DNA from: a virus
Taxonomy: Duplodnaviria; Caudoviricetes
Length of the DNA: 35,374 nt
Virus record (IMG/VR): IMGVR_UViG_3300020042_013011
Location: 1 to 35,374 of that record
Strand: one strand, 5' to 3'
The translations under genes and the position numbers were made by a program. Of this stretch, positions 7,456 to 32,611 are shown one piece after another (the first letter of the stretch is position 1; each line of letters opens with the position of its first letter). The notes beneath the pieces are model-generated. The model ran no database searches. It was given only the letters and a program-made list of their open reading frames with translations, and was not told where the DNA came from.

Positions 7456-7465
7456 TTAAAATACA

Positions 7466-8614
7466 ATGAATATTCCAATTTGGCCTGGTTCAAGTTCATT
7501 TGCCCCTGGAGATACTCCATTTGGGTTTTATGACAATGATGTACAATTTCAAACAGATGCTGATAAATTTGCAAAATTCTCTTCACAACGTTTAGGTTAT
7601 CCTTTAGTAGAAGTTGAATTACAAGATATAAATTTTTATACAGCATTTGAAGAGGCAATTACAACCTATGGAAACGAGCTATATGCTTATCAAGTAGCAG
7701 AAAATTTGCTATCTTTTCAAGGTGCTTCTACAACAATACAATCCCCTAATAACCAAGTTATTCAGGAAAATATGTCTGCCATTGTTCGTTTATCTCAACA
7801 ATATGGAGAAGAAGCAGGTGTAGGTGGAACAATAACTTATCATACAGGATCCCTTCAACTTACCTCAGGTATACAAGATTATGATATGAATCAATGGGCT
7901 ATTGATAATAATATTCAAGGTCGAATTGAACTAAAACGTATATTTTACGAAGCACCCCCAGCAGTTACAAGATACTTTGATCCATATGCAGGTACGGGTA
8001 CTGGAATGATGCAAATGTTAGATAGCTTTGGTTGGGGGTCTTATTCACCCGCTATTAACTTTATGTTAATGCCTATCAGTTATGATATGCAAAAAATTCA
8101 AGCAATTGAATTAAATGATCAAATTAGAAAATCACAATATACATTTGAGTTAGTAAACAATCGATTAAGATTATTTCCAATCCCAATATCACATTACCAA
8201 TATTTACGTTTTGAGTATATTTTAGAATCTGATCGTAACAATCCATACATGAATAACAACGGTCAAAGTTTAATTACCAACGCCTCTAATGTACCATATG
8301 AGAATCCAACATATAACACGATTAACTCGATTGGTCGTCAATGGATATTTGAGTATGGTTTAAGTATTGTTAAAGAGATGTTAGGATATGTTAGAGGAAA
8401 ATATACTACAATTCCCATCCCTGGAGCAGAAATAACATTAAACCAAGGAGATTTAATTACAGCAGCAACAAACGAAAAAACAGCATTAATAGAACGTTTA
8501 AGATCATATTTTGATACAACTTCCCGCAAAACATTACTTGCTAATAAAGCGGAAGAAGCACAAAGTCAGATGAGTATTTTAACGGATGTACCAATGACAA
8601 TTTTTATAGGATAA
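7466..8614 (+). CDS. Neck/head-completion protein, T4 gp13-like
   Basis: RLGYPLVEVEL near the N-terminus and GKYTTIPIPGAEITLNQ near the C-terminus resemble gp13-type neck proteins; synteny fits. Confidence 0.75.
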   Translation: MNIPIWPGSSSFAPGDTPFGFYDNDVQFQTDADKFAKFSSQRLGYPLVEVELQDINFYTAFEEAITTYGNELYAYQVAENLLSFQGASTTIQSPNNQVIQENMSAIVRLSQQYGEEAGVGGTITYHTGSLQLTSGIQDYDMNQWAIDNNIQGRIELKRIFYEAPPAVTRYFDPYAGTGTGMMQMLDSFGWGSYSPAINFMLMPISYDMQKIQAIELNDQIRKSQYTFELVNNRLRLFPIPISHYQYLRFEYILESDRNNPYMNNNGQSLITNASNVPYENPTYNTINSIGRQWIFEYGLSIVKEMLGYVRGKYTTIPIPGAEITLNQGDLITAATNEKTALIERLRSYFDTTSRKTLLANKAEEAQSQMSILTDVPMTIFIG

Positions 8615-8615
8615 T

Positions 8616-9125
8616 ATGGCTCTTTTTGGCACCCAACGTGATGTTTCCCTAATTAGACACCTCAATCATGAGTTGCTATGGGATATTATTACACAAGAAT
8701 GCGTATATTATCAATTTAAAACTGCTGAAACTAAAACAAACATGTATGGTGAAGCAGCTGGTGCAAAATATTATGGAGCACCTGTTATCTTAAACATGCT
8801 TGTTGATAGAGGTGATAATGCATCTCCTACTGGAGATATGGGTGTAGATTATGCTCGTCCTATGACATTTAAATTCTTTAGAGACGATTTAGTAGATGCT
8901 AGTCTAGTCCCTGATGTAGGCGATATCATCATGTGGTATGAAGGATATTGGGAAGTTGAAAATACAAATGCTAACCAATTCTTTGTAGGTAAAGACCCAG
9001 CATATCCATACAATACAAATCCATTAAATCCTGGATTAGAAAACTTCGGTTCCAATTTATCAATTATGTGTGTATGTCATTATGTACCTGCTGATAGTGT
9101 ACAAATTACTAAAGAAAGGATATAA
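8616..9125 (+). CDS. Neck protein, gp14-like
   Basis: Lies between gp13-like and gp15-like genes; NMYGE and PDVGDII motifs. Confidence 0.6.
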   Translation: MALFGTQRDVSLIRHLNHELLWDIITQECVYYQFKTAETKTNMYGEAAGAKYYGAPVILNMLVDRGDNASPTGDMGVDYARPMTFKFFRDDLVDASLVPDVGDIIMWYEGYWEVENTNANQFFVGKDPAYPYNTNPLNPGLENFGSNLSIMCVCHYVPADSVQITKERI

Positions 9126-15283: not shown

Positions 15284-15988
15284 ATGGCATTTAATTATTC
15301 ACCAAAAATAGTAACCGATGGATTGATACTTGCACTAGATGCAGCTAATACAAGATCTTATCCTAGTACTGGAACTACATGGACTGATTTAAGTCGAGGT
15401 GGTAATAATGGAACATTAGTAAATGGACCTACCTTTAATACAGAAAGTGGAGGAAATATTGTTTTTGATGGCACTAATGATTATTGTAATATACCAATAC
15501 CAGCTGTCCCAACCGGTAGCCAAGCTACAGTATCATTTTGGACTAAATTCAATATTACCCAAGCATCATCAATATTTTCAGCATATAATTCTGCAGGTCA
15601 AAGACAAATAAATATACATTTAACTTGGAGTGATAGTATTGTGTATTGGGATTGTGGGGCAAGTGGTGGTACATATGATAGAATAAATAGTAGTACATTA
15701 ACTATAGCACAAAAAACTGGATGGCATAATTGGATCTTTACTAAAAACGCGACAACAGGTACTATGGTTATTTATTTAGATGGTATAAGTTTAGTTTCCG
15801 GTACTGGAAAAACTAATACAATAGGAGTCATTAGTACAGCATCAAAAAGATGTGCAATTGCTAGTTTTGATGATACATTGTATTATTCTGGTAATATAAG
15901 TAGTATGTTATTATACAACCGTGCCCTAAGCGCAACCGAAGTTCTCCAAAACTATAACGCAACTAAAACCCGATTTGGACTTATATAA
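15284..15988 (+). CDS. LamG/concanavalin A-like lectin domain protein 1
   Basis: IVTDGLILALDAAN, WTDLS..GNNGTLVNGPT, FDGTNDY, WHN, IYLDG and YNRALSATEVLQNY. Confidence 0.85.
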   Translation: MAFNYSPKIVTDGLILALDAANTRSYPSTGTTWTDLSRGGNNGTLVNGPTFNTESGGNIVFDGTNDYCNIPIPAVPTGSQATVSFWTKFNITQASSIFSAYNSAGQRQINIHLTWSDSIVYWDCGASGGTYDRINSSTLTIAQKTGWHNWIFTKNATTGTMVIYLDGISLVSGTGKTNTIGVISTASKRCAIASFDDTLYYSGNISSMLLYNRALSATEVLQNYNATKTRFGLI

Positions 15989-16629
15989 TGGCAGGAACAG
16001 TAGCACCAGATATAGTAACTAATGGTTTAGTGTTGTATTTAGATGCAGCAAATACTAAGTCATATGTAAGTGGTAGTACCTCATGGACTGATATAGCTAA
16101 TCTTACTAATGGAACTTTAACAAATGGACCAACGTTTAATTCTGCAAATGGAGGTTCTATAGTTTTTGATGGAGTAGATGATTATGCAGTTTGGTCAAGT
16201 AATCCTTTATCTTCATTAACATCTGCTAAAACATATGATCTTTGGATTAAATTTAACCAAAGTAACTTAAATGCATTTACACTTTCATGTGGGACTATAA
16301 TGGTATATATTGAAAGCGGCAATACATGGTATGTAAATCAGTCTGGGGCAACAAATTCTTACCTAGGTTGGACATATAATTCAAATTGGAATAATTTTAT
16401 TTATTCATTTGATGGGACTAATCATTTATGTTATATTAATGGTACTTCAAGAACCATAAATTTTGGTAGCGGGCTAAGTTCTCAAACTAATTTATATATC
16501 GGAAATAGAATTAATTTAGATAGCCCAATGAAAGGAAATATAGCCTCTACCAAAGTATATAATAGAGGACTTTCAGCTCAAGAAATGCTTCAAAACTATA
16601 ACTCAACAAAAACCCGATTCGGAATATAA
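15988..16629 (+). CDS. LamG/concanavalin A-like lectin domain protein 2
   Basis: Same terminal motifs (IVTNGLVLYLDAAN, FDGVDDY, YNRGLSAQEMLQNY). Confidence 0.85.
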   Translation: MAGTVAPDIVTNGLVLYLDAANTKSYVSGSTSWTDIANLTNGTLTNGPTFNSANGGSIVFDGVDDYAVWSSNPLSSLTSAKTYDLWIKFNQSNLNAFTLSCGTIMVYIESGNTWYVNQSGATNSYLGWTYNSNWNNFIYSFDGTNHLCYINGTSRTINFGSGLSSQTNLYIGNRINLDSPMKGNIASTKVYNRGLSAQEMLQNYNSTKTRFGI

Positions 16630-16632
16630 AAT

Positions 16633-16896
16633 ATGGAAACACAAGAATACGACAACAGAGAATTCATGATATTCAATGTATCTGAATTACCAGAAATTAA
16701 CTTTACACAAGTACTAGAAACTTCAGAAGACACAGTACGTAAAAGTGTAGATGGTACAAAAACATTTGTAAAATGGGATGGTGAAATACCACAATGTGTT
16801 GCATATTTAGATACTAAAGAAGGACCATACACATATGATGAAATTTTAGCTATTTTAGCTACACCAGAATGGAATTATCCTGACCCAACGATATAA
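16633..16896 (+). CDS. Small acidic hypothetical protein between LamG genes
   Basis: 87 aa ORF in a tightly packed operon. Confidence 0.7.
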   Translation: METQEYDNREFMIFNVSELPEINFTQVLETSEDTVRKSVDGTKTFVKWDGEIPQCVAYLDTKEGPYTYDEILAILATPEWNYPDPTI

Positions 16897-16901
16897 GAAT
16901 A

Positions 16902-17609
16902 ATGGGAACGGTAACAGGTGGGCAAGGCAATATTGTAACTAATGGACTAGTACTTCGTTTAGATGCATCTAATCCAAGATCATATGCTCCTCCATATGAT
17001 GGAACTGCTTGGACTGATTTAAGTGGAGTTGGAAATAATACAACCCTTGTAAACGGTCCTATTTATTCATCGGATAAAGGAGGATTCATTACTTTTGATG
17101 GTACAAATGACTATGGAAGTATTAGTAATCAAACTTCAATGTTAACACCTACATTTACAATATGTAGTTATGTAAATGCTGTAAGTTTTACAAATGCTGT
17201 AGTGTTTACTAGAGAAAGTGCACGTTTAAATTTAGGTATATCATACGGAGGCTCTCAAGGTGCATATTTTTTTGTTAGAGGAAACAATTACCCTGCTGCT
17301 GAATTTAACGGTGTTCAACAATCTTATGGTTTTCAACTAAACACCTGGTATCATGTTACATTTATAGTAGACATCCCAGGAAATAATTATGGAATGTATG
17401 TAAATGGATCTCAAATTTGGTCTTCTAATGCAGTTTTAGGAACAGATTTTCAAAATCCTGGAATTTCTGGGGTAATAGCCTCTAGATATGGTGGTGCTGC
17501 AAATAATGCAAATATTAGATTAGGATCTTTTTACTTTTATAATCGTGCTCTTTCAGCAATTGAAGTACTTCAAAACTTTAACGCAACAAGAACACGTTTT
17601 AACATTTAA
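16902..17609 (+). CDS. LamG/concanavalin A-like lectin domain protein 3
   Basis: IVTNGLVLRLDASN, FDGTNDY, NTWYHVT, MYVNG and YNRALSAIEVLQNF. Confidence 0.85.
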   Translation: MGTVTGGQGNIVTNGLVLRLDASNPRSYAPPYDGTAWTDLSGVGNNTTLVNGPIYSSDKGGFITFDGTNDYGSISNQTSMLTPTFTICSYVNAVSFTNAVVFTRESARLNLGISYGGSQGAYFFVRGNNYPAAEFNGVQQSYGFQLNTWYHVTFIVDIPGNNYGMYVNGSQIWSSNAVLGTDFQNPGISGVIASRYGGAANNANIRLGSFYFYNRALSAIEVLQNFNATRTRFNI

Positions 17610-17660: not shown

Positions 17661-20600
17661 ATGGCAAACGAATTTAAAATAAAGAATGGTTTCTTCTCAG
17701 AAGGATCATCAAACGTAACCGGATCATTTAATGTATCCGCAGGTATAACTGGATCACTTTTAGGAACTGCATCATTTGCAACAACAGCATCTTATTGGAC
17801 GGGAACTGTTACAAGTGCATCATATGCAACAACGGCTTCTTACGTTTTAAATGCTGTTTCTAGTTCATTTGCTACAAGTGCTTCATTTTCTCAAACTGCT
17901 CAAACAGCTTCATATGTCTTGAACGCAGTATCTAGTTCCTTTGCTACATCTGCTTCGTTTGCTGTATCTTCTTCAAGAGCGGTAACTGCTTCATTTGCAA
18001 TATCTGCTTCTTGGGCACCTGGAGGTGGAGGAGGAGGCCCAGCATTCCCCTTTACAGGTTCAGCTCAAATAACAGGATCATTAGGTGTTACCGGTTCAAT
18101 CAATAATTTACTTATTAGTACGGGTAATGGTAACGTTTCAACAAACGTTTCAATTGGTTCAACTACTGCATTTAGTGGATCAAATACTGGAACACATAAT
18201 ACTGCAATTGGATCTGGTTCATTATTTTCTAATACAACAGGTATTTCTAATACAGCAATAGGTATTAATGCTTTAAATGCTAATACAACAGGTCAAGATA
18301 ATATTGCAATTGGTCGTGAATCTTTAAAAAACAATGATTATGGAAGCTATAACATTGCATTAGGAGGTGCTTCTTTAAGAAATAACGTTTCTGGAAATAA
18401 TAACATTGCCCAAGGATACCGCTCACTTTATTATAATACTTCAGGTGAATCCAATATAGCAATTGGACGTCTTACTTTATATAGAAATACTTCAGGTATT
18501 AATAACACAGCAATAGGTAATGAAGCTTTACGTCTTAATACAACAGGAACCGATAATACAGCAATTGGTAACAATATTTTAACATATAATACAACCGGTC
18601 AATATAATATTGCAATTGGTAAACGTACATTAGAAGGAAATGGATATGGTAATAACAATATTGCTTTTGGACCAGGTGCTTTAAAATCCAGTGTTACTTC
18701 AAGTTATAATATTGCAATCGGAACAGATGCTTTAAATGCTTTTAATACAACTTCAACATATGCAACCAATATAGCAATTGGATTCCGTGCTTTACGAGGC
18801 CAACCAGGATATAGTACAGGTATTCAAAACATAGCAGTTGGAATAGAAGCTTTAAAATCAACCACCAGTGGTAATAATAATACAGCAATTGGAACACAAG
18901 CTTTATTCTATAATACAACAGGTGCCAATAATACAGCAATAGGAAATCTTGCTTTAAAATATAGTACTATAAGTTATAATAATGTAGCAATTGGTACCGG
19001 TGCAATGTATTATTTTAATACAACTGCTACTGGTTATTCTAATACAGCAATTGGAGCATGTGCATTATTTGGCTACTCTGGCTACAGTACTGGATATCAT
19101 AATACAGCAGTTGGATTTGAAGCTTTAAAATATAATAGAGCAGGTACTTCTAATAGTGCACTTGGACATAAAGCTTTATTTGCAAACCAAACCGGAAGCA
19201 AAAACGTAGCAATTGGATGTAACTCCCTTAGTTCAATTACTGCAGGAACTGGAAGTGTTGCTATAGGAAATAATTCCGCTATTTTAGATTGTAATAACAC
19301 CCCAATATCAGGCCTATATAATTCAGTTATTATCGGATATGATGCTCGTGTTAAATCTAGTGGTGATCGTAATACAATTGTTATTGGATGGGGTGCTAAA
19401 GGAAATGGCTCTAATACAACTACAATTGGACGCTCTTTAACAGAGATAACCTGTTTCCCCGGTGGATGTGTACAGGCAAATAATTTCGTTGCAACTACTG
19501 GATCAGGTATAGGATTTCAAGGAACAGCTTCATTTGCAGTTTCTGCTTCTTGGGCACCTGGAGGTGGAGGAGGAGGCCCAGCATTCCCATTTACGGGATC
19601 TGCTCAAATTACAGGTTCATTAGGAGTAACAGGTTCAATTAATGATTTATTTATTAGTACGGGTAATGGTAACGTTTCAACAAACGTTTCAATTGGTTCA
19701 ACTACTGCTTTTGATAGTTCTGCTACTGGTACCTATAACATAGCAATGGGTGTTCGATCTTTACAATTTACTACAGTCGGAAGTAATAACACTGCACTTG
19801 GATCCGATTCTTTACGTTATAACACATCTGGATCTAGTAATGTTGCAGTTGGAAATGCTGCTTTGTTTAAGAACTCTACAGGAGTAGGAAATGTAGCTGT
19901 AGGTTCTGGTGCATTAAGAGGTAGCTTTAGTGCATTTTTAAGTGTAGGTTCAAACAACACAGCCCTAGGCACCTCAGCATTAAGCCAAAATATTTCAGGT
20001 TCTTGTAATATTGCTATTGGTTACCGCTCCCAATTTAACGCATTTTCAGGATCCAATAACATATCAATAGGTGCTTCGGCTTTACATAGTATTAGATCAG
20101 GTTCCCATAATATTGCTATTGGTTCTGGTTCTTTATATTGTGCTACTTTTGGTCACAATAATATAGGTTTAGGTGAGAATACTTTAAGACTTAATGGAAC
20201 GGGAAGTCATAATATTGCTTTAGGTCAAAGAGCATCATTTTCTAACACAACAGGAACTTATAATATTGCTTTAGGTCAAAGAGCATTATTTGCAAACTCA
20301 ACCGGAGGAAATAATGTTGCAATAGGTCAAAATGCTTTAACGAATAATTCATCTAGCAATAATATAGCATTAGGTCTAGATTCTTTACGTTGCAACACAA
20401 CAGGATTCCGCAATGTAGCAATAGGTCCAAGTGCTTTAAGTTGTAATACAACCAGTTGTTATAATATAGCAATGTCTTTTCAAGCTTTAATGTACAATAC
20501 AACGGGAAATGGCAATACAGCAATTGGTGGAACTGCTTTACGCAATAATACAACCGGACAACAGAATACAGCAATTGGTTATCGTGCTTTATGTAACAAC

Positions 20601-21485
20601 AGATCAGGATCATTTAATATAGCTATTGGCCCTAATGCTTTACGTACTCCTGCTGGGGCTTGTCATAATATTGCTTTAGGAAGTGGTTCTCTTGCTTTAA
20701 CTACAACAGGAACTGATAATGTTGCTTTAGGTCGAGTATCTCTTACTAATAATGCAATAGGAACTGATAATGTTGCTTTAGGTCAATGTACTTTATTTTG
20801 TAACAATAGTGGAAGCCATAATACCGCAATTGGTTATAGAGCTTTAAATAGAAATACAACAGGTAGCTGTAATATAGCTTTTGGTAGAGATTCCCTATAT
20901 ACTAACGTATCAGATTTTAATATAGGTATTGGTGCATGCACATTGCGTGGAAATACATCTGGTGATAATAACACTGCAATAGGCCAAAATGCTTTATTTT
21001 CTAACCAAACCGGTAGATGTAATATAGCAATAGGTACAAATGCTTTAATATGTAACACAACTAGTTGTAATAACATAGCTCTAGGCGTGGGTGCATTAAA
21101 CTGTAATACAACATATAATTCTAATATAGCTTTAGGTAATAGTGCTTTAAGATGTAATGTTCGTGGTTCAGATAATATTTCTTTTGGTTATAATTCCCTA
21201 AGACTAAACGTTTCAGGAAGCTGTAATATTGCTATAGGTAGAAATGCATTTTGTCTTAACACAGCTACAACAGGAAGTCATAACATTGGTCTTGGATACA
21301 ATACTCAATTTACCGGAAGCTTTTCAGTAATATTAGGTAAAGATGCAGTATCAACAGGAAACTGTCAGTTTGTAGTTGGAAGTACTGGTACTCCATTAGG
21401 CACAGTAACAACTGAAACATGTACATCAACTAGAACATGGTCTGTAGTTATTAATGGAGTTTCAAGAAAAATATTACTTGTATAA
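17661..21485 (+). CDS. Large tail fibre/adhesin with YadA-like ~14-aa N(T/I)AIG repeats, internally duplicated
   Basis: 1274 aa; dozens of N(T/I/V)A(I/L)GxxALxxNTTG repeats; two copies of the SASWAPGGGGGGPAFPFTGSAQITGSLGVTGS block. Confidence 0.8.
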   Translation: MANEFKIKNGFFSEGSSNVTGSFNVSAGITGSLLGTASFATTASYWTGTVTSASYATTASYVLNAVSSSFATSASFSQTAQTASYVLNAVSSSFATSASFAVSSSRAVTASFAISASWAPGGGGGGPAFPFTGSAQITGSLGVTGSINNLLISTGNGNVSTNVSIGSTTAFSGSNTGTHNTAIGSGSLFSNTTGISNTAIGINALNANTTGQDNIAIGRESLKNNDYGSYNIALGGASLRNNVSGNNNIAQGYRSLYYNTSGESNIAIGRLTLYRNTSGINNTAIGNEALRLNTTGTDNTAIGNNILTYNTTGQYNIAIGKRTLEGNGYGNNNIAFGPGALKSSVTSSYNIAIGTDALNAFNTTSTYATNIAIGFRALRGQPGYSTGIQNIAVGIEALKSTTSGNNNTAIGTQALFYNTTGANNTAIGNLALKYSTISYNNVAIGTGAMYYFNTTATGYSNTAIGACALFGYSGYSTGYHNTAVGFEALKYNRAGTSNSALGHKALFANQTGSKNVAIGCNSLSSITAGTGSVAIGNNSAILDCNNTPISGLYNSVIIGYDARVKSSGDRNTIVIGWGAKGNGSNTTTIGRSLTEITCFPGGCVQANNFVATTGSGIGFQGTASFAVSASWAPGGGGGGPAFPFTGSAQITGSLGVTGSINDLFISTGNGNVSTNVSIGSTTAFDSSATGTYNIAMGVRSLQFTTVGSNNTALGSDSLRYNTSGSSNVAVGNAALFKNSTGVGNVAVGSGALRGSFSAFLSVGSNNTALGTSALSQNISGSCNIAIGYRSQFNAFSGSNNISIGASALHSIRSGSHNIAIGSGSLYCATFGHNNIGLGENTLRLNGTGSHNIALGQRASFSNTTGTYNIALGQRALFANSTGGNNVAIGQNALTNNSSSNNIALGLDSLRCNTTGFRNVAIGPSALSCNTTSCYNIAMSFQALMYNTTGNGNTAIGGTALRNNTTGQQNTAIGYRALCNNRSGSFNIAIGPNALRTPAGACHNIALGSGSLALTTTGTDNVALGRVSLTNNAIGTDNVALGQCTLFCNNSGSHNTAIGYRALNRNTTGSCNIAFGRDSLYTNVSDFNIGIGACTLRGNTSGDNNTAIGQNALFSNQTGRCNIAIGTNALICNTTSCNNIALGVGALNCNTTYNSNIALGNSALRCNVRGSDNISFGYNSLRLNVSGSCNIAIGRNAFCLNTATTGSHNIGLGYNTQFTGSFSVILGKDAVSTGNCQFVVGSTGTPLGTVTTETCTSTRTWSVVINGVSRKILLV
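17988..19712 (+). repeat. Dispersed ~185-bp direct repeat within the large fibre gene (17988-18173 and 19527-19712)
   Basis: Offset 1539 bp (513 codons); long identical stretches, mostly synonymous differences. Confidence 0.85.
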
Positions 21486-21541: not shown

Positions 21542-22363
21542 ATGGTACAAAAAGTTTTTTATAACGCATCGATGCCTCGAGCAGGTTCAACATTATTGCA
21601 AAATATTTTAATGCAAAACCCGGATATTTATTCAACTCCAACTTCGGGTGTGATTGAATTTTTATTAAATGCAAGAACAGTATATTCTGCGGGTGATGCT
21701 TTTAAAGCACAAGATCAAGATGAAATGAAAGCAGGATTTAAAAATTTCTGCAAAACTGGATTACATGGTTTTTTTGATGGGATTACTGATCGCCCTTATA
21801 TAATGGAAAAAAGTAGAGGATGGTTAGGTCACTTTAATTTTATTGAATTTTTTACGGATGAAAAACCTAAAATGGTAGTCATGGTACGAGATTTACGTGC
21901 TATTTTTGCTTCAATGGAGAAAAATTTCCGTAAACACCCCGATAAAGACCCAATGATTATTAATGGTGTTGAATTGAAAAATATGACTACAGCAGCACGT
22001 GTAGATCATTTCTCAGTTGCCCCACCAATTGGACCTTCAATGGAATGGTTATCTGAAGCAATCCATCAAGGAATAGATAAAGATATTTTATTTATTCGTT
22101 TTGAAGATTTGACAGTAGACCCTGAAACCGAAATAAAAAAAGTATACAAATATTTAGAATTACCGTATTTTAAACATGATTTTAACAATGTTGAACAATT
22201 AACTCATGAGAATGATGTTATTCATGGAATATTTGGTGATCATAAAATCCAACCTCAAGTAAAACCAGTATATGGTAATTTTATTGAAATTTTAGGAAAA
22301 GATCAATGTGATCGTTTACGCCAACATTATGATTGGTATTTTAGAGCTTTTAATTATATTTAA
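21542..22363 (+). CDS. PAPS-dependent sulfotransferase
   Basis: 5'-PSB loop SMPRAGSTLL, 3'-PB motif VRDLRAIFAS, and IRFEDL..DPE motif. Confidence 0.88.
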   Translation: MVQKVFYNASMPRAGSTLLQNILMQNPDIYSTPTSGVIEFLLNARTVYSAGDAFKAQDQDEMKAGFKNFCKTGLHGFFDGITDRPYIMEKSRGWLGHFNFIEFFTDEKPKMVVMVRDLRAIFASMEKNFRKHPDKDPMIINGVELKNMTTAARVDHFSVAPPIGPSMEWLSEAIHQGIDKDILFIRFEDLTVDPETEIKKVYKYLELPYFKHDFNNVEQLTHENDVIHGIFGDHKIQPQVKPVYGNFIEILGKDQCDRLRQHYDWYFRAFNYI

Positions 22364-22377
22364 TATTTATAAACAAA

Positions 22378-22620
22378 ATGGAAGAAACATATACCCCAGA
22401 ACAAATCCAACACCACATTAATGCAGCATTTGATTCAGTTAATCTGATCAACACTGAAATTACTCAAGAAGTAACTGATAACCGTAAAGACACTGTAAAA
22501 CGTAATGTTCAACATCTTGAACTTATGATCGGTAAAGATTGGTTTGAAGCAGGATGTACAGCACAACAAGTAACTGATATCAATGCATGTATTGCTGCTG
22601 GAAACACATACACAGCGTAA
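22378..22620 (+). CDS. Small hypothetical protein
   Basis: 80 aa ORF preceded by the late motif at 22363. Confidence 0.7.
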   Translation: MEETYTPEQIQHHINAAFDSVNLINTEITQEVTDNRKDTVKRNVQHLELMIGKDWFEAGCTAQQVTDINACIAAGNTYTA

Positions 22621-22637: not shown

Positions 22638-23108
22638 ATGATATATTGGTTTACAGGGCAACCTGGACATGGTAAAACGGTTTTAGCATCTGCTTTAAAG
22701 CAAGAATTAGATAATACATTTCATATTGACGGAGATGACCTGCGTGCTATATTCGATAATAAAGACTATAGCGAGGCAGGCCGCCGCAAAAATATTGAAT
22801 TGGCTCAACAATTAGCTCATTTTTTACACAACAAAGAATGTAATGTAGTTGTGTCGCTAGTTTCTCCTTATCAAGATCAACGTGAGGAATTTAAAAATAA
22901 ACTTGGAAAATCTATAAAAGAGTTTTATGTTCATACTACCGAAATAAGAGGTAGAGAAAACTTCCACGTTGAAAATTACCAACAACCAACAGAAAATTAT
23001 CTTGATGTAGATACTACAAATATTTCGGTTGAAGAATGTTTAAATAAAATAAAAAGTTATGCAAAATTGGAGCAAAAAAGTACACGTACAATCATCACTG
23101 GAATCTAA
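22638..23108 (+). CDS. cysC: Adenylyl-sulfate (APS) kinase
   Basis: WFTGQPGHGKT P-loop, IDGDDLR, YSEAGRRKNI and VVVSLVSPY..QRE; start moved from 22587 to ATG 22638 to avoid overlap with the previous gene. Confidence 0.88.
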   Translation: MIYWFTGQPGHGKTVLASALKQELDNTFHIDGDDLRAIFDNKDYSEAGRRKNIELAQQLAHFLHNKECNVVVSLVSPYQDQREEFKNKLGKSIKEFYVHTTEIRGRENFHVENYQQPTENYLDVDTTNISVEECLNKIKSYAKLEQKSTRTIITGI

Positions 23109-23463
23109 ATCAAATCAATATGCAATGTTTATTGGTCGTTGGCAACCCTTACACCCAGGACATAAAGCATTATTTCAACAAGCTTTAGATGAAGGAAAAA
23201 ATGTTTGGATTGCAATTAGAGATGTTGAAACAACAGAATCAAACCCATTTGATGCTCAAGAAGTACTTGAAAATATTGGAAATGAATATAAAGAACTTTG
23301 TGGACAAGGTCGAGTTAAAGTTAGTATCATCCCTGACATATGTTCGGTTGAGTTTGGTAGAGGAGTTGGTTATGATATTATTGAACATATACCTCCCACT
23401 CAGATAGCAGAAATCTCAGCAACTAAAGTTAGAGAACAAATGCGTAAAGAAGGTAAGTTATGA
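23059..23463 (+). CDS. HIGH-motif (cytidylyltransferase-like) nucleotidyltransferase
   Basis: FIGRWQPLHPGH (HxGH motif), NPF and ISATKVRE (KMSKS-equivalent). Confidence 0.85.
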   Translation: MQNWSKKVHVQSSLESKSNQYAMFIGRWQPLHPGHKALFQQALDEGKNVWIAIRDVETTESNPFDAQEVLENIGNEYKELCGQGRVKVSIIPDICSVEFGRGVGYDIIEHIPPTQIAEISATKVREQMRKEGKL

Positions 23464-23906
23464 AAACAAAAATAAAAAAATTTCAAATTCGATTCAACGT
23501 TAATAGCCAAGCAGAACATGAACGTTGGCGTCTTATTGAAGATGGTAAAGAATATCTAGTATCTAATATCATCATTGATGGTCATACTTGTACTACAATG
23601 GATTGGATGGAAGATCTTCAAGATTATAAGTGGCATATTAGTTGTGAAGGATATGTTACTATCCAAAATAATACAGCATATGTTGTTACAGTAAAAGAAG
23701 ATTCGGTAATGACACGACATATCTTAAAAACATTTTCATACCGCATTTTAGGCACGTTAACAACAGTCCTTGTTGCCTATTCATTAGGCGCTTCAATTCA
23801 ATTATCATCCCTACTTGGAGTAGGTGAATTACTTATAAAACCCGTTATCTACTTTTTCCACGAACGAGTATGGTACAAATATCTTAGAATAGGAAACAAA
23901 AAATAA
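23460..23906 (+). CDS. Two-domain protein with a C-terminal DUF2061-like membrane domain
   Basis: C-terminal RHILKTFSYRILGTLTT...KPVIYFFHERVW with two hydrophobic segments; soluble N-terminal ~80 aa. Confidence 0.7.
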   Translation: MKTKIKKFQIRFNVNSQAEHERWRLIEDGKEYLVSNIIIDGHTCTTMDWMEDLQDYKWHISCEGYVTIQNNTAYVVTVKEDSVMTRHILKTFSYRILGTLTTVLVAYSLGASIQLSSLLGVGELLIKPVIYFFHERVWYKYLRIGNKK

Positions 23907-23907
23907 C

Positions 23908-24786
23908 ATGGAAGAAAAATATATAGTTTGGCATATCGAAGGTGGTTTAGGTAAAAACGTTGCTGCTACTGCTTTATTAAGTACTATCCAAGAAACATAT
24001 AGCGATAGAAAAATAGTTGTTGTTGCTTCATACCCCGAGGTGTTCTTAAATCATCCCGCGGCTTACCGCGTTTATAAAATGGGTTCTACGCAATATTTTT
24101 ATGATGATTATATCAAAAATAAAGATACGCTTATTTTCAAACATGAACCATATTTTGAGACACAACATATTTTAAAAAATAAACACTTAATTGCAAATTG
24201 GTGCAAACTTACAGGTATTGAATATACATTTCAAACACCTATCTTGAATTTTAATTTTGTTCAACAACGAAATTCTATCCAATGGCAAAGAGAAAAACCA
24301 ATTTTGGTAATCCAAACAAATGGAGGTCCTTTAAATAGTGCTTTAGAATACTCCTGGACACGAGATATTCCATTTAACATGTCAAACCAAATTGTTAACA
24401 AATATAGAGAAACACATCATATTATTCAAATATGTAAACCATCCTCATTAAAAATTGAGGGAGCTGAAGTAATTGATTCTCATCTTCAGGCAATGGAATT
24501 ATTTTCATTACTAGCAGTTAGTGATAAACGTGTTTTAATTGATTCAAGTTTGCAACATGCGGCCGCTGCTATGAATCTTAAGTCAACAGTATTTTGGATT
24601 GGTACATCCGCTAAAAACTTTGGATATTCAATTCATAAAAATATTGAAGCAAATCCACCCACAGATATAGTAAAACTTGTAGACTCTTACTTGTTTGATT
24701 ATTCATTTGAAGGCATAACTCATGAATGTCCATATTTTAGCTTAGAAGAAATGTTTGATATGCCTGAAATAATCAAAACTATATAA
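23908..24786 (+). CDS. Glycosyltransferase, GT9 (heptosyltransferase)-like GT-B fold
   Basis: N-terminal EGGLGKNV and C-terminal IDSSLQHAAAAMNLKSTVFW resemble the GT9 GIGD and DSGxxHxAAA motifs. Confidence 0.75.
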   Translation: MEEKYIVWHIEGGLGKNVAATALLSTIQETYSDRKIVVVASYPEVFLNHPAAYRVYKMGSTQYFYDDYIKNKDTLIFKHEPYFETQHILKNKHLIANWCKLTGIEYTFQTPILNFNFVQQRNSIQWQREKPILVIQTNGGPLNSALEYSWTRDIPFNMSNQIVNKYRETHHIIQICKPSSLKIEGAEVIDSHLQAMELFSLLAVSDKRVLIDSSLQHAAAAMNLKSTVFWIGTSAKNFGYSIHKNIEANPPTDIVKLVDSYLFDYSFEGITHECPYFSLEEMFDMPEIIKTI

Positions 24787-24808: not shown

Positions 24809-25957
24809 ATGGCACTTACATTAACTAAAATAGGTATAACAACAGGTAATACTATTGAAGCATATCACGTAACTCAATCGATTGATGCTTTTACTAGTGC
24901 CGTTGCATACGACATTAGTCTTACTGGTTCATTTACTGTAACAGGTTCCATTTCTAATGGAGTTAGCAATAATGCATCTGGATTAAACTCACATGCTGAA
25001 GGACAATTCAATACATCATCAGGGGCTTATTCTCATGCAGAAGGCTATTTAACTCTTTCATCAGGCTCTTATTCACATGTTGAAGGTTATTCTTCCATAG
25101 CAAAAGGACAATACTCACATGCTGAAGGCACCAGCACAACATCTATAGGAGACTATTCACATACTGAAGGTTACCAAACTTCCTCCCCAGGAAACTACTC
25201 ACACGCCGAAGGTTCATTTACTATAGCCCCAGGGCAAAGTGCCCACTCTGAAGGATACTTTACATCAGCTTCAGGTGATTATAGTCATGCTGAAGGATCC
25301 CAAACCACATCCTCAGGCCAATACTCACATGCTGAAGGAATTTCAACACGAGCAGTAGGGATAGGTTCTCATGCTGAAGGATCAAGTTCCCTTGCTTCAG
25401 GTAATGGATCTCATGCTCAAGGATCTCAAACTACAGCATCAGGTCAATTTTCTTTTGCTGCAGGTGTTCAAAATAAATCATTAAGTATAGGATCGTTTGC
25501 TTTAGGTCTTCAATCAGTTGCAAATGGTCAATATTCAACATCCATAGGATATCTTTCTTATGCTGCAGGAATTTCTTCATTTGCTGCTGGATATTCCACA
25601 TCAGCATCAGGACAATATAGTTTTGCTATTGGTGATACTACAAATGCTTTAGGATATAGTTCATTTACTCAAGGAGGTGGTACTATAGCATCAGGTTCGT
25701 ATCAAGCAGTATTAGGTACTCACAATACACAAGGAGATTCAACTTCCACACTTATAGTAGGAATAGGCTTAACTGCAGTTTCTCGCAAAGATGCATTCAA
25801 AGTTAGAATGTCCGGTTCAATCGTATTACCAACTACCCAATCATCACAACCCGCTTGGACAGGTACCGATGGTGAAATGATATTTGCAACCGTAACAGGA
25901 AATCATATATTTTATGTATGGATGGCGGGTGCGTGGAGATCAGGTTCATTAGTATAA
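24809..25957 (+). CDS. Fibre/adhesin-like protein with SHAEG (YadA-head-like) repeats
   Basis: About 11 tandem 14-aa SHAEG-type repeats followed by SFAAG-type repeats; C-terminal domain paralogous to 10469..11797. Confidence 0.75.
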   Translation: MALTLTKIGITTGNTIEAYHVTQSIDAFTSAVAYDISLTGSFTVTGSISNGVSNNASGLNSHAEGQFNTSSGAYSHAEGYLTLSSGSYSHVEGYSSIAKGQYSHAEGTSTTSIGDYSHTEGYQTSSPGNYSHAEGSFTIAPGQSAHSEGYFTSASGDYSHAEGSQTTSSGQYSHAEGISTRAVGIGSHAEGSSSLASGNGSHAQGSQTTASGQFSFAAGVQNKSLSIGSFALGLQSVANGQYSTSIGYLSYAAGISSFAAGYSTSASGQYSFAIGDTTNALGYSSFTQGGGTIASGSYQAVLGTHNTQGDSTSTLIVGIGLTAVSRKDAFKVRMSGSIVLPTTQSSQPAWTGTDGEMIFATVTGNHIFYVWMAGAWRSGSLV

Positions 25958-26287: not shown

Positions 26288-28030
26288 ATGGCAGAAACAA
26301 TTGTATCACCTGGTGTATTAGCTATAGAAAACGATCAATCATTTGTAACTCAGCAACCTGTACAAGCAGGAGCTGCTATCATTGGCCCTGCAGTTAAAGG
26401 TAAAGTAGGTATTCCTACTATAGTAACAACATACAGTGATTATTTAAATAAATTTGGTGCTACTTTTCTTAGCGGAAGTAACACATTCACTTATTTTACC
26501 TCAATAGCAGCATATAATTACTTCAACAATGGGGGAGCGTCATTACTTGTAACTCGTGTAGTAACAGGTTCATTTACAGCCGCATCATCTTCATTTATAT
26601 CTGCTTCTGCACATGCTGCTGGTTCTCCTTACAATGCAGATGTATTTGTATTAGAGACAATCTCTAAAGGAGAAATCATGAACAGTACAGGACCAACAGG
26701 AAATGTTGGTACTTTATTAAGCGGATCAGCAGATAATTTCAGATGGCAAATCACCTCAGCTAATACAGCATCCGGTACGTTCTATTTATTAGTTCGTCAA
26801 GGTAATGATACAAATGTTTCCCCATCCATTTTAGAAACATGGGGTCCATTATCTTTAGATCCATATTCAAACGATTACATTGAAAAAGTAATTGGTAATC
26901 AAGTTGAAAATGTAGCAAGTGATAGTGGTGAATTTTATATTCAATTGTCTGGAAGTTATCCAAACAATTCATCTTATGTACGAGTTAAAACAGTAAACCA
27001 AACTACACCAAATTATTTCGATAACGTAGGTAATCCTAAAAATGAATTTACTGGTTCCATCCCATTAAATAATAGTGGTTCATTTGGTTCAGCAACAGGA
27101 AAAAATGTGATAGGGGGTAATAATAAATACTATGAACAAATTACTTCAGCAGATAACATCCAAGGATTAAATGCTAGTAACTACACACAATCAATTTCTC
27201 TATTAGCAAATAAAGATGCATTCAAATACAACGTATTAATTGCACCTGGGTTGATGTCAGATATGGGTGGTATAGCAGCAACTGCTATTACTTCAATGAA
27301 TACTGTAGCTCAAAATAGAGGAGATATGATGGTGGTATTTGATTCATCAAAATACAATTCCCAAATTACTTCAGTGTTATCAAACACAGTAGGATATGAT
27401 ACTTCATATGCTGCAACATATTGGCCTTGGGTAAAAACAATTGATCCAAGTACTGCAAACCAAGTTTGGGTACCTGCTTCAACTTTAATTCCTGGAGTAT
27501 ATGCATTTAACGATAACGTTGCTGCTCCATGGTTTGCACCTGCAGGTATAAATAGAGGTATTTTACCTACAGCTGTACAAGCAGAACGTGTATTGACACA
27601 AGGAAATAGAGATACGTTATACCAAGCAAACATTAACCCAATTGCTACTTATCCTAATGTAGGTGTAGTAGTATTTGGACAAAAAACATTACAAAAGAAA
27701 AAAAGTTCATTAGATCGTATCAACGTAAGACGTTTGTTGATCGAATTGAAATCATATATTTCTCAAGTAGCAGATACATTTGTATTTGAACAAAACGACA
27801 CTGTTACTAGAAATAATTTCTTATCGATTATTAATCCATATTTAGCTTCTGTTCAACAACAACAAGGTTTAACAGCATTTAGAGTAGTAATGGATGAAAC
27901 AAACAATCCACCATCGGTAGTAGATAATAATCAGTTAGTAGGTCAAATTTATTTACAACCAACTAGAACAGCTGAATTCATTCTATTAGACTTTAATATA
28001 TTACCTACTGGTGCAACGTTTCCTGCTTAG
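26288..28030 (+). CDS. gp18: Tail sheath protein 1 (gp18-like)
   Basis: SPGV..E.D, YAATYWPWV, PWFAPAGINRG, INPI, FGQKTL, DRINVRRL, FEQND and PTRTAEFI. Confidence 0.95.
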   Translation: MAETIVSPGVLAIENDQSFVTQQPVQAGAAIIGPAVKGKVGIPTIVTTYSDYLNKFGATFLSGSNTFTYFTSIAAYNYFNNGGASLLVTRVVTGSFTAASSSFISASAHAAGSPYNADVFVLETISKGEIMNSTGPTGNVGTLLSGSADNFRWQITSANTASGTFYLLVRQGNDTNVSPSILETWGPLSLDPYSNDYIEKVIGNQVENVASDSGEFYIQLSGSYPNNSSYVRVKTVNQTTPNYFDNVGNPKNEFTGSIPLNNSGSFGSATGKNVIGGNNKYYEQITSADNIQGLNASNYTQSISLLANKDAFKYNVLIAPGLMSDMGGIAATAITSMNTVAQNRGDMMVVFDSSKYNSQITSVLSNTVGYDTSYAATYWPWVKTIDPSTANQVWVPASTLIPGVYAFNDNVAAPWFAPAGINRGILPTAVQAERVLTQGNRDTLYQANINPIATYPNVGVVVFGQKTLQKKKSSLDRINVRRLLIELKSYISQVADTFVFEQNDTVTRNNFLSIINPYLASVQQQQGLTAFRVVMDETNNPPSVVDNNQLVGQIYLQPTRTAEFILLDFNILPTGATFPA

Positions 28031-28076
28031 TAATATATTTTAAAGAGAATATTCATATTTATAATAAAAATATAAA

Positions 28077-29795
28077 ATGGCAAATTTTACAGTATCCCCT
28101 GGGGTAGCAATTAGTGAGATAGACAACACGTACTTAACAGGACAACCTGTTCAAGCAGGTGCTGCTATTATAGGTCCAACGGTTAAAGGACCTGTTGAGG
28201 TACCAACATTAGTAACTACTTACTCTGATTTCGTAACGTTATTTGGAGATAGTTTTATTAGTGGTGGTAACGCTTATTCATACCTTACTTCAATTGCAGC
28301 TTACAATTATTTCAACTACGGTGGAACTTCATTATTAGTAGCACGTGTAGTAACAGGATCATATACACCAGCAACATCAACCTTCGTTTCAGGTAGTACA
28401 GCAGGAGCAGTTGCAAGTGGTAGTGCATTTACTTTAGAGACAATTTCTGAAGGTATTATCATGAACAGTTCAAGTTCATTAGATGCTTCTGGAGCTCTAT
28501 TACTTTCAGGATCCGCAGATAATATTAGATTTGAAATTACCAATTCAAATACTGGGTCAGGTACATTTAATGTAGTAATTAGACGTGGTAATGATATTAC
28601 AAACAATAAAGTTGTTTTAGAAGCATTTAACAACGTTAACTTAGATCCAAACTCAAATAGATATATTGCCGCTGTAATTGGTGATCAAACATTAAATTAC
28701 AATTCATCCACAGTACAGATGGAATTGTCTGGAAGTTATCCAAATATGTCAAGATATGTACGTGTTAAAGCTGTCAATAATAATACCCCAAATTATTTTG
28801 ATGCTAATGGAAACCCAGTAAGCGCATATACAGCATTTATTCCCATTAATGGAAGTGGATCATTTACAGGCGCTACAGGAAACATTTCAGGATCTACAGG
28901 AGCTACAATGTATGATAATATTGGTGCTACTACGCAAGGTTTAGTAGGTGGTAATTACGATAGTATGATTGCATTGCTTTCTAATGCAGAAGCATATCAA
29001 TTCAATGTATTGTTTGCTCCTGGATTAACAAATGACACTCATACAACACAAATCACAAATATTATCACAAACACTCAACAACGTGGAGATAATTTGTTTG
29101 TAGCAGATTTAACATTATATAGCGGAACAGTTGCTAGTGCAGTAACTCAAGCACAAACAAGAGATACTTCATATGCTGCAACATATTGGCCTTGGGTTCG
29201 CATTATAGATCCAGCAACAGGAAAACAAGTATATGTACCAGCTTCTACCGTAATCCCAGGTGTATATGCTTTCAACGATAAAGTAGCGGCTCCATGGTTT
29301 GCACCTGCAGGTATCAATAGAGGTGGATTATCTACAGTATTACAAGCTCAATTGAAATTAACTCAAGGAAACAAAGATACATTATATTCAAGTAATATTA
29401 ACCCAATTGCTACATTACCTAAACAAGGTGTTGTAGTATACGGACAAAAAACATTACAAAAAGCTCAATCTGCTTTAGATCGTGTAAATGTACGTCGTTT
29501 GATGATTGAATTAAAATCATATATCCGCCAAATTGCAGATACAGTAGTATTTGAACAAAACACTATTGCAACAAGAAATTCATTTGTAGCACGTGTTACT
29601 CCATTCTTAGAAGGAATCCAACAAAAACAAGGATTATACGCTTATAAAGTAGTAATGGATGCAACAAATAATGGACCAGCAGTAATTGATCAAAATCAAT
29701 TAGTAGGACAAATTTATATCCAACCAACGCGCACAGCTGAATTTATATCTTTAGATTTTATCTTAACTCCAACAGGAACTGAATTCCCAGGGTAA
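28077..29795 (+). CDS. gp18: Tail sheath protein 2 (gp18-like paralogue)
   Basis: Same full set of sheath motifs; full-length tandem paralogue. Confidence 0.95.
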   Translation: MANFTVSPGVAISEIDNTYLTGQPVQAGAAIIGPTVKGPVEVPTLVTTYSDFVTLFGDSFISGGNAYSYLTSIAAYNYFNYGGTSLLVARVVTGSYTPATSTFVSGSTAGAVASGSAFTLETISEGIIMNSSSSLDASGALLLSGSADNIRFEITNSNTGSGTFNVVIRRGNDITNNKVVLEAFNNVNLDPNSNRYIAAVIGDQTLNYNSSTVQMELSGSYPNMSRYVRVKAVNNNTPNYFDANGNPVSAYTAFIPINGSGSFTGATGNISGSTGATMYDNIGATTQGLVGGNYDSMIALLSNAEAYQFNVLFAPGLTNDTHTTQITNIITNTQQRGDNLFVADLTLYSGTVASAVTQAQTRDTSYAATYWPWVRIIDPATGKQVYVPASTVIPGVYAFNDKVAAPWFAPAGINRGGLSTVLQAQLKLTQGNKDTLYSSNINPIATLPKQGVVVYGQKTLQKAQSALDRVNVRRLMIELKSYIRQIADTVVFEQNTIATRNSFVARVTPFLEGIQQKQGLYAYKVVMDATNNGPAVIDQNQLVGQIYIQPTRTAEFISLDFILTPTGTEFPG

Positions 29796-30409: not shown

Positions 30410-32611
30410 ATGAAAAATCTATTAATATTCCTTTTATTGACTTTTGTAGGATATGGTCAATATTGTCCTGCTTTAGGACCCGATCAACTATTACCTTGTG
30501 GTGTAGGATCAACTACTTTAACCGCAAATTTAAGCCAATGTGGGACGGGCAATAACCCCAATCAAACCATAAATTACACCGTTGCTTCCATACCATATGT
30601 AGCCCAAACCAATACAGGAACATCTATTTTTATGACGGATGACTCTCAACAAGGACCATTTGCTATTGGATTTAATTTTTGTTTCTATGGACAAACATAT
30701 TCTCAATTCTATATTGGTTCAAATGGATGGATTTCATTTTCCGGAGGACAACCCACAACATTTACCTCTACCCCATTACCAACAGCAGGTGTATTAACAC
30801 CCAAAAATTGTATTATGGGACCTTGGCAGGATTGGCATCCTGGAATTGGAGGACAAATCAAATATCAAACAGTAGGTGTAGCCCCATGTAGAAAACTAAT
30901 TGTAAGTTGGATAAACATGCCTATGTTTAGTTGCACTACAAATCAAGGCACATTCCATATTGTAATTGAAGAATCCACCAACTATATCAGCAATTATATT
31001 CAGTCAAAACCTGCTTGTTTGCAATGGCAAGGTGGAACAGCTACTGAAGGAATACATAATGCAGCAGGAACTGTCGCAGTAACTGTACCTGGTAGAAATT
31101 CCACAGCTTGGACAGCTACTAACGATGCTTGGAGATGGACCCCAAGTGGACCTGTAGTCACTCCAACTTTAACCTGGTATCAAGTAGGAAATCCTGTAGC
31201 TATTGGAACAGGACCCACACTTACTGTTACCCCAACAGGACCAACACTATATACTTGCCATTTAGAATATCCAACATGTAATGCAGGATGGTCTTCATGT
31301 AATGCCGGAACAAGTTTAGGACCTGATACAGTACTAGTAGCACCTGGTCCTCCAAATTTACCTCCACCTACTATAATTCCATTTAATCCCAATTGTATTG
31401 GAAGTTGTGATGGGGCTATTAGTGTAATTTCAAGTGGTGGAACAGGCGTTCAAACGATTTCGTGGAATGGTCCTCAAACAGGATTTACCCCAATTAATTT
31501 ATGTGCTGGTGCATATAGTTTTACAATTGTTGATGCTGCTGGTTGTACGGTTTCGGGAACTGCTACGCTAACAAACCCTGCTCCTATTGTAGTAGGCCCT
31601 ATAATAGCGTCGGATACAGTGTGTTTTAACACAACCAATGAAGTGTATGATGTGCCCGATTTGGGAGCAGGATTCACATATACATGGAGCAGTATCGGTA
31701 ATATTGTTTCGGGTCAAGGCACAACTTCTATAACAGTAGATTATACCTCTATACCAGCAGGATTTATCCCTGGAGTAGTAAATGTTACAGCTTATAGCCC
31801 AAATGGATGTACAAGTATTCCTGCTTCATTCGATGTTACTGTATTTAATATCTTACCTGTAATTGATCCTGCAGGTCCGTTTTGTTCAAATGATGAATTT
31901 TCAACATTGAATGCTACTCCAATTGGAGGTGTATTTAGTGGAACAGGAATGATGGGTAATGATTTTTATCCTGCATTTGCTGATACACTAGATAATTTTA
32001 TAACTTATACCTATTTACAAAGTGGATGTTCATTCGATACTACAATTACTATTACTGTTTACGAACAGCCAACTATTACCCCAATTACACCGTATAATGA
32101 ATTCTTTGAACTATGTGATGGTGATTCTATACCAAGCATATATTCGGTAGTTGCTTCTTTACCCGGTTATAATGAATGGACTATATTAAATAATACCGTC
32201 CAAACAGAAACACTAAACATCGCTTGGAATGCGCCCGGAATGTTTGATATTTTGGCAGTACATTATTCAAATGGATGTGCTTCTCCTCCACAATTCAATC
32301 TAGTTACTATAGTACAATGTCCTGAACTGTTATTTTATATTCCAAATTCATTCACTCCTGATGGAGATGAAAATAATAACACTTTTAAATGGACGTTTAC
32401 AAGTGGGTTTGATCCATTTGATTTCCATGTAGAAATCTACAATAGATGGGGAGAAATAATATATGAAAGTTATGACCACACCGATTATTGGGATGGAACA
32501 TACTCTAACTTCCCAGTAACTCCAGGATTATACAACTATCAAATTCATTTTGGTAGTAAAAAAGATGATGGTGCATATGAATTTGCAGGAAGTGTTAATC
32601 TTATTAGATAG
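30410..32611 (+). CDS. Secreted adhesin-like protein with signal peptide, SprB-like repeat and T9SS type B (gliding motility-associated) C-terminal domain
   Basis: MKNLLIFLLLTFVGYGQ signal peptide; C..SCDGAI....GG...SW...NLCAGAYSFTIVDAAGC repeat; YIPNSFTPDGDENN..F, IYNRWGE, WDGT, PGLYNY and GSVNLIR C-terminus. Confidence 0.88.
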   Translation: MKNLLIFLLLTFVGYGQYCPALGPDQLLPCGVGSTTLTANLSQCGTGNNPNQTINYTVASIPYVAQTNTGTSIFMTDDSQQGPFAIGFNFCFYGQTYSQFYIGSNGWISFSGGQPTTFTSTPLPTAGVLTPKNCIMGPWQDWHPGIGGQIKYQTVGVAPCRKLIVSWINMPMFSCTTNQGTFHIVIEESTNYISNYIQSKPACLQWQGGTATEGIHNAAGTVAVTVPGRNSTAWTATNDAWRWTPSGPVVTPTLTWYQVGNPVAIGTGPTLTVTPTGPTLYTCHLEYPTCNAGWSSCNAGTSLGPDTVLVAPGPPNLPPPTIIPFNPNCIGSCDGAISVISSGGTGVQTISWNGPQTGFTPINLCAGAYSFTIVDAAGCTVSGTATLTNPAPIVVGPIIASDTVCFNTTNEVYDVPDLGAGFTYTWSSIGNIVSGQGTTSITVDYTSIPAGFIPGVVNVTAYSPNGCTSIPASFDVTVFNILPVIDPAGPFCSNDEFSTLNATPIGGVFSGTGMMGNDFYPAFADTLDNFITYTYLQSGCSFDTTITITVYEQPTITPITPYNEFFELCDGDSIPSIYSVVASLPGYNEWTILNNTVQTETLNIAWNAPGMFDILAVHYSNGCASPPQFNLVTIVQCPELLFYIPNSFTPDGDENNNTFKWTFTSGFDPFDFHVEIYNRWGEIIYESYDHTDYWDGTYSNFPVTPGLYNYQIHFGSKKDDGAYEFAGSVNLIR

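Follow-up and report, generated by a model that had tools for sequence, protein, structure and literature searches.

The 134-aa HIGH nucleotidyltransferase (P0001) encoded beside an APS-kinase-like gene in a large phage is very probably an ATP sulfurylase (ATP + sulfate to APS + PPi, reversible) that is not an ortholog of Sat or CysD, an activity predicted from its fold, invariant residues, gene fusions, gene order and co-occurrence patterns. To our knowledge, the recognised ATP sulfurylases are of two kinds, Sat and CysDN. We think it likely that P0001 represents a third, ~13-kDa class that evolved separately, from a NadM/CoaD-like enzyme, and that this class provides the missing Sat of SAR11 (ATP from sulfite via AprMBA), serves streamlined alphaproteobacterial sulfate assimilation, and forms a ~280-residue PAPS synthase with which large phages and haloarchaeal plasmids sulfate their own surfaces. 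In three contexts, the candidate family fills the APS-forming position in gene clusters without Sat and CysDN, and APS is the sole metabolite common to all three (APS kinase, AprBA and CysH).

The window, the whole stretch of DNA analysed, is a single 35,374-nt virus contig that makes up the entire record and is a fragment of a large myophage. It encodes a Gp23 capsid protein, a prohead protease, PhoH and two tail sheaths (Pfam scan of 35 ORFs), and the best cultured match of the capsid is to Flavobacterium phage immuto (56%), making a Bacteroidota host plausible. P0001 sits in a tight gene run flanked by fibre genes, in the order tail spike, sulfotransferase, 80-aa ORF, kinase, P0001, DUF2061, putative glycosyltransferase and YadA-like protein. 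The features, with the motifs inside P0001, are:

17661..21485, + strand: tail spike/fibre repeat protein, 1274 aa (phrog_4636 tail spike, phrog_6002 virion protein), directly upstream of the sulfotransferase-kinase cassette
21542..22363, + strand: sulfotransferase (PF13469 1.2e-13, PF00685 1.9e-12)
22378..22620, + strand: 80-aa ORF, present in 16 of 80 viral loci
22638..23108, + strand: APS-kinase-like protein with a shortened lid (PF01583, 54.7 bits); the longest ORF runs from 22587
23059..23463, + strand: P0001, 134-aa HIGH nucleotidyltransferase, candidate minimal ATP sulfurylase (ORF, Pfam, homologues, model, motifs)
23134..23163, + strand: GRWQPLHPGH motif, residues 26-35, a NadM-like start plus HxGH (G, R, Q, P, H and H invariant in 70 sequences)
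23356..23373, + strand: GRGVGY family signature, residues 100-105 (G in 151/151 and R in 150/151 aligned stretches, 150 representatives)
23413..23433, + strand: ISATKVR motif (S in 143/144, R in 142/142), aligned with ISGT..R of Sat and ISS of CoaD
23460..23906, + strand: N-terminal part without known family, then a DUF2061 membrane domain (PF09834)
23908..24786, + strand: putative glycosyltransferase (GT9-like lead; ESM Atlas 0.98, neighbour cluster 45% PF01075)
24809..25957, + strand: YadA-head repeat fibre-like protein (PF05658), directly downstream of the putative glycosyltransferase

The first-pass annotation had drawn on the lack of Sat and CysDN genes here. Pfam indeed finds none among the 35 ORFs, but the argument is weak because the contig is a fragment, and we do not use it as evidence. 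The GT9-like label survives as a lead through the ESM Atlas cluster, the putative glycosyltransferase having no Pfam or PDB match. The 80-aa ORF likewise has no family match in Pfam, NCBIfam or PHROG. Elsewhere in the window, three LamG/concanavalin-like proteins lie immediately 5' of the spike gene (15284-17609), and two tandem tail sheath genes (26288-29795) are followed by a 733-aa protein (30410-32611) whose SprB, PKD and CHU_C (type IX secretion signal) domains are unusual for a phage.

From the sequence, the kinase probably starts at 22638, because the AAAAGTT upstream of it is the same as that at 23059. Its ORF ends at 23108, which creates a 50-nt overlap with the P0001 ORF. Among viral relatives the overlap is most often 17 nt (17 loci), and otherwise 50 nt (10), 44 nt (2), 4 nt (2), 1 nt (2) or -2 nt (1), with 34 of 40 loci measurable; given this variation, we rejected the 50-nt overlap as a recoding signal. 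The name cysC given to this gene on first reading holds to the extent that the protein is APS-kinase-like: it exceeds the Pfam cut-off, its best PDB sequence matches are APS kinases (7yq0, 8a8h), and in alignment with canonical CysC it keeps the P-loop, DGDxxR, [FY]SxxxRxxN and SP motifs. However, it falls below the NCBIfam cut-off (TIGR00455, 61.6 vs 138.7), and the RDxKGxY...FTG lid of canonical CysC is shortened rather than intact. The lid is strongly reduced in the aligned phage and SAR11 versions.

The coordinates, length, HPGH motif and cysC overlap first reported for the P0001 ORF (23059-23463, + strand, 134 aa, GRWQPLHPGH at residues 26-35) are all borne out. HPGH (residues 32-35) is the HxGH that follows the first strand of a Rossmann-like fold, and we take ISATKVR to be the KMSKS-equivalent motif. 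P0001 passes the cut-off of Pfam CTP_transf_like (E 2.3e-6) and is a real gene, as all but four of the 7,999 candidates scored proved to be relatives, which gives at least 7,995 relatives. The family, at E 1e-10, comprises 1,159 clusters, some of which may be NadM; its domain of ~115 aa is widespread and carries no established name. Residues G26, R27, Q29, P30, H32, H35, R54, N62, P63, P92, G100, R101, V103, G104, Y105, S120 and R125 are invariant in 70 aligned sequences and nearly all are retained across 150 diverse representatives. The predicted structure is a single 134-aa HIGH domain (pLDDT 91.9), and the top 25 VIA rows from a structure search with this model are all HIGH-type enzymes. 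We found no description of a ~115-aa HIGH family in a literature search that placed subscription journals outside its scope, nor any mention of one in the accessible portions of PMC2211403, PMC5099947 and PMC8305020; a term search of two supplements of PMC5069961 gave no match.

Structure comparison places P0001 nearest to PPAT (Z 9.8, rmsd 2.9, 111 aligned) and NadM (Z 9.6, rmsd 3.1, 110 aligned), then Sat 1v47 (Z 7.5, rmsd 3.8, 114 aligned), with TagD (Z 6.7) and HldC (Z 5.9) lower than all of these. The comparison with Sat, NadM and HldE-type domains that had been proposed confirms the HIGH fold and a likeness to Sat, but sets P0001 closer to PPAT and NadM. Foldseek ranks NadM/PPAT first too; the Foldseek rows seen were a thinned output in which the absence of Sat is not evidence, and VIA does list Sat. 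P0001-like proteins are named NMN adenylyltransferase in NCBIfam and the ESM Atlas, and the NadM motifs GR[FW]QPxHxGH and NP[FW] are present in the family. Yet P0001 scores far below the cut-offs of all NCBIfam enzyme-family models, including those for NadM (31.6 vs 127; 27.9 vs 181.2) and CoaD/PPAT (21.9 vs 104; 17.3 vs 103.3), and the one NCBIfam model whose cut-off it reaches is TIGR00125, a generic domain model. There is no match to PF01747 at E 0.01, to PF01507/TIGR02039 (CysD PP-loop) in the Pfam and NCBIfam scans, or to rfaE/tagD models at E 0.1 in NCBIfam. Profile-profile probabilities are 26% against five Sat proteins and 92% against five CoaD proteins, in a low-powered comparison that used small Sat, CoaD, NadD and HldC/TagD sets.

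The span from HxGH to ISAT is 87 residues in P0001 (family median 86; 124 of 150 representatives measurable), compared with 117 in CoaD, 133 in the one of two NadM-like proteins that could be measured, 146 in NadD and 149 in Sat. The family core is 30-60 residues shorter than those of related NadM, CoaD and Sat enzymes, and the segment shortened in P0001 presumably corresponds to the location of the NMN pocket of NadM. Because scores are below cut-offs, the core span is short and the QXRN motif is absent, P0001 represents a distinct compact HIGH family and not a Sat. With Sat-type ATP sulfurylases (PF01747; T. thermophilus 1v47, A. vinosum 4dnx), it shares the HIGH fold, the HXXH motif (invariant H32 and H35), a C-terminal IS[AG]TxxR and, for the family, the predicted reaction and a gene position before aprMBA described in the available text of PMC3779200. 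Sat proteins are ~350 aa or more, and the N- and C-terminal accessory domains are missing from P0001, as is the QXRN sulfate/phosphate loop, in whose place stands GRWQ; QXRN binds sulfate in Sat, according to the same partial source (PMC3779200). Low-powered hhalign did not put the invariant GR(G/D/x)VGY of the family on the GRD loop of Sat. The identity of P0001 as a trimmed Sat is rejected on the missing QXRN and on a fold and sequence nearer NadM/CoaD. The family has its probable origin in a NadM/CoaD-like enzyme: NadM (M. jannaschii 1f9a, Synechocystis 2qjo) and CoaD/PPAT (4nah) are its nearest relatives by sequence and fold, from which it differs in a core shorter by 30-45 residues, new invariant RD and GRxVGY motifs and sulfur-gene contexts. 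CysDN, a PP-loop enzyme coupled to a GTPase, has the predicted reaction and a cys-operon role in common with the family and no sequence match.

The first context is PAPS supply. The fusions to APS kinase that the first-pass annotation suggested looking for in homologues exist, in both orders: they account for 39 of 53 representatives of at least 200 aa (11 HIGH-first and 28 kinase-first), and many contain canonical CysC. PF01583 occurs in 80 of the 120 longer homologues listed (217 in all), and phrog_10255 combines kinase and HIGH domains in a single protein. The other long representatives include proteins with DUF2061, a methyltransferase or DHHA1, as well as likely chimeras. Like PAPS synthases and Sat-CysC fusions (human PAPSS1 1x6v, Aquifex 2gks), these would be sulfurylase-kinase fusions in either order that feed sulfotransferases, but they are only ~250-340 aa and their HIGH domain is not Sat. 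In many ~320-aa homologues (P0123-P0145; viral loci such as L036 and L072), an N-terminal Cys-rich domain that by eye resembles a homing endonuclease is inserted in frame and separates the kinase from the HIGH domain; P0144 has a NUMOD3 domain instead.

Among the best 80 of 596 viral loci, a kinase is present in 77, DUF2061 in 75, a sulfotransferase in 59 and a homologue of the putative glycosyltransferase in 52; the three loci without kinase have ≤ 311 nt of upstream sequence. The glycosyltransferase might be taken to support the alternative first proposed, that P0001 activates a sugar-1-phosphate or polyol-phosphate for its neighbour, as do HldE/HldC or TagD. The gene immediately after the fusion is a GmhA-like SIS gene in 2 of 80 cellular loci (6 loci have one within 8 kb), and the long homologue P0218 is a truncated domain joined to NTP_transferase. 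This idea is hard to credit, however: only 2 of 80 cellular loci have the glycosyltransferase homologue nearby, the 53 long representatives include no PfkB, Nudix or glycosyltransferase fusion, the GxFDxxHxGH start of HldE/HldC/TagD-type proteins is replaced by GRWQP, HldC and TagD are structurally more distant than NadM/PPAT and Sat, and the apr and cysH contexts described below would go unexplained. We regard activation of either a sugar or NMN by P0001 as unlikely.

DUF2061 accompanies the family in phages, in a cysH operon (L207:7285-7548) and in fusions (P0276, P0358), and is a candidate sulfur-pathway membrane partner. The ~85-aa N-terminal part of the DUF2061 protein in the window is separate or missing in other loci.

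Outside phages, a sulfotransferase lies just upstream of a CysC-HIGH fusion in all three haloarchaeal plasmid loci read, of ten matches. These loci (L189-L191) have a recurring cluster of sulfotransferase, CysC-HIGH fusion and YqcI/YcgG gene. In Marinimicrobia, a sulfotransferase adjoins the family gene. Across 121 Marinisomatota, APS kinase is present in 81, and the family occurs in none of the 72 with a Sat or CysD-like gene; where kinase is found without Sat or CysD, the family is present in three of nine genomes and absent from six. A sulfotransferase is within ~3 kb in three of five further alphaproteobacterial fusion loci (44 longer ORFs scanned), and not in two.

Kinase-HIGH fusions also occur in two cultured phages, Xylella phage Sano (L082:6555-8324) and Stenotrophomonas phage DLP_6 (L081:5593-6324). 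In Sano, a weak sulfotransferase match (E 4e-4) lies two genes upstream, and a NADAR gene is also on the upstream side; in DLP_6, no sulfotransferase is among the 10 ORFs scanned. The acceptor in Sano may differ, because the cassette is away from tail genes. P0001, with the kinase as its partner, could instead adenylylate another small anion (selenate, a phosphonate or a sulfonate), at least in lid-shortened branches such as that of Sano, a notion for which the reduced lids of phage and SAR11 kinases and the weak or missing sulfotransferases of these two phages speak. We find it scarcely probable, as the same lid-shortened kinase occurs in a cysGIH operon and canonical CysC fusions carry the same HIGH domain.

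Large phages with cysC have been reported before: the accessible text of PMC10914622 describes 62 cysC as auxiliary metabolic genes of freshwater phages and reads them as assimilatory sulfate reduction, the word 'sulfotransferase' being absent from its main text. Unlike in that reading, as far as the source was available, the cysC of the window would be one gene of a self-contained sulfation cassette, which lies among the tail genes.

The second context is sulfite oxidation in SAR11. The GTDB sample consists of the best 80 of 551 loci, of which 58 are Pelagibacterales. A kinase lies within 1.5 kb in 48 and aprA within 4 kb in 29, with both in four and neither in seven. In 24 of the 80, the order is HIGH-aprM-aprB-aprA, with the HIGH gene directly first; AprA and AprB were confirmed by family scan, and AprM is named by position and hydrophobicity only. 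The available part of PMC3779200 places sat of A. vinosum immediately upstream of aprMBA, and that of PMC5069961 reports that P. ubique has AprBA and is missing cysDN and sat. Fifty of the 80 carrier genomes were tested: Sat was found in two and CysD above the cut-off in two, and neither in the 25 apr-linked genomes. Of 151 Pelagibacteraceae, 95 encode the family, 81 AprB and six Sat. The family is carried by 79 of the 81 genomes with AprB, often unlinked (78 of 80 without G189, a genome marked as unpublished), and is absent in 54 of the 70 without AprB; ten of the 16 exceptions are in long frames of fusion size. Sat occurs in four of the 81 AprB-bearing genomes and in five of the 95 family carriers. 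Fisher p values for co-occurrence (7e-24 and 0.001) overstate the association, since kin are not independent and most genomes are incomplete. Exclusion is not strict: Sat is also present in carrier G711, and CysD in G038, G046 and G668.

Several SAR11 observations stand beside these counts. In apr loci (L127:3033-3695, 7341-8831), a CADD-family (TIGR04305) gene comes before and a 116-aa ORF and TauE after, and L118 retains CADD-HIGH-tauE without aprMBA. The few Sat genes of SAR11 (L163-L168) are divergent (PF01747 E 8e-63 to 6e-25); one adjoins its own APS kinase and two, by eye, a pyruvate-kinase-like gene. The accessible part of a preprint (bioRxiv 10.64898/2026.04.03.716430) notes AprA-AprB as a conserved pair; 'sulfurylase' and 'adenylyltransferase' were not found in it.

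The SAR11 genomes also bear on whether P0001 is simply a minimal, NadM-like NMN adenylyltransferase or another cofactor adenylyltransferase (CoaD, RibL). NadM shares two motifs with P0001 and is its best NCBIfam, PDB-sequence and Foldseek match. Against this, all four SAR11 genomes checked have separate CoaD-type and NadD-type genes (one of each family-scanned), the neighbours are sulfur genes, the NadM score is far below its cut-off, the core is ~45 residues shorter than in the NadM-like protein, and the long representatives include no Nudix fusion. A cofactor role is thus quite improbable.

The third context is sulfate assimilation in a small-genome alphaproteobacterial family. Twelve matches, including G530 (marked as unpublished), came from 401 Alphaproteobacteria; two of them (L205 and L206) are weak and NadM-like and were rejected as family members. 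Two genomes encode a full assimilatory sulfate operon without Sat or CysDN, in which chelatase, cysG, cysI, cysH, DUF2061 and lid-shortened kinase genes precede the HIGH gene, which is last:

L207:3267-8401 (G480): cysGIH-type operon (gene order and family scan)
L208:1354-6536 (G597): cysGIH-type operon (gene order and family scan)

The CysH of these operons contains CCxxRK and SxGCxxCT, which we take to be marks of Fe-S APS reductase. Ten of the 11 genomes in this alphaproteobacterial family have the gene, in the order cysH-DUF2061-kinase-HIGH in nine of ten loci, the tenth being cut by a contig end. Sat is present in one of the 11 genomes and CysD above the cut-off in none.

HIGH enzymes move AMP from ATP and release PPi. 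We favor the ATP sulfurylase reading because this is the only AMP-transfer reaction required in all three settings. HxGH and ISATxxR would bind ATP as they do elsewhere in the HIGH superfamily, a large second substrate would not fit into the shortened core, and sulfate and phosphates may be held by the conserved Arg27, Arg54, Arg101 and Arg125; a short core and four conserved arginines would suit a small anion. The forward ATP sulfurylase reaction is unfavourable, which fits the persistent pairing with a kinase. In the phage, the kinase encoded by the overlapping gene would draw APS onward to PAPS, with the adjoining sulfotransferase as the likely PAPS consumer. The sulfated target would probably be a glycan made by the glycosyltransferase, possibly on fibres, a guess from gene position; the 1274-aa tail spike/fibre protein is a possible acceptor. 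In SAR11, the enzyme would run backwards after AprMBA and convert APS to ATP, and in cysGIH operons it would start sulfate assimilation.

It is also conceivable, with a small chance, that P0001 acts on APS or PAPS otherwise: it may be an APS phosphorylase (ADP sulfurylase), hydrolyse APS or PAPS, or bind APS and regulate the kinase as its partner. This would fit the aprMBA context, where APS needs discharging, and would explain the coexistence with Sat in a minority of SAR11 carriers. A cysGIH operon, or a kinase-sulfotransferase cassette that has no other APS source, would however gain nothing from the destruction of APS, the intact HxGH and ISATxxR indicate ATP/PPi chemistry, and known ADP sulfurylases are HIT/GalT proteins. 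Counting against an ATP sulfurylase are the greater nearness to NadM/PPAT, the absent QXRN, the seven of 80 GTDB loci with neither kinase nor aprA close, the minority of carriers that also have Sat or CysD, the truncated kinase lid in the window, and the weak or missing sulfotransferases of Sano and DLP_6. Overall, the sulfurylase activity suggested at the outset remains a prediction supported by fusions, the sat position in SAR11 and the cysGIH operon, but for an enzyme nearer NadM/CoaD than a reduced Sat; the HldE-type sugar activation offered with it is disfavored.

If correct, the assignment would fill a long-noted gap in SAR11, the most abundant ocean bacteria. AprBA without sat or cysDN in P. 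ubique, as given in the available text of PMC5069961, leaves the fate of APS open, and the family gene makes this gap testable. Pathway calls depend on Sat and CysDN; sulfate activation would be wrongly scored as missing from genomes that have the cysGIH operon. A PAPS synthase of ~280 aa that needs no GTP coupling would also be well suited to enzymatic sulfation. For the phages, cysC at these loci would serve a self-contained sulfation kit, in contrast to the host sulfate assimilation that the accessible text of PMC10914622 proposes.
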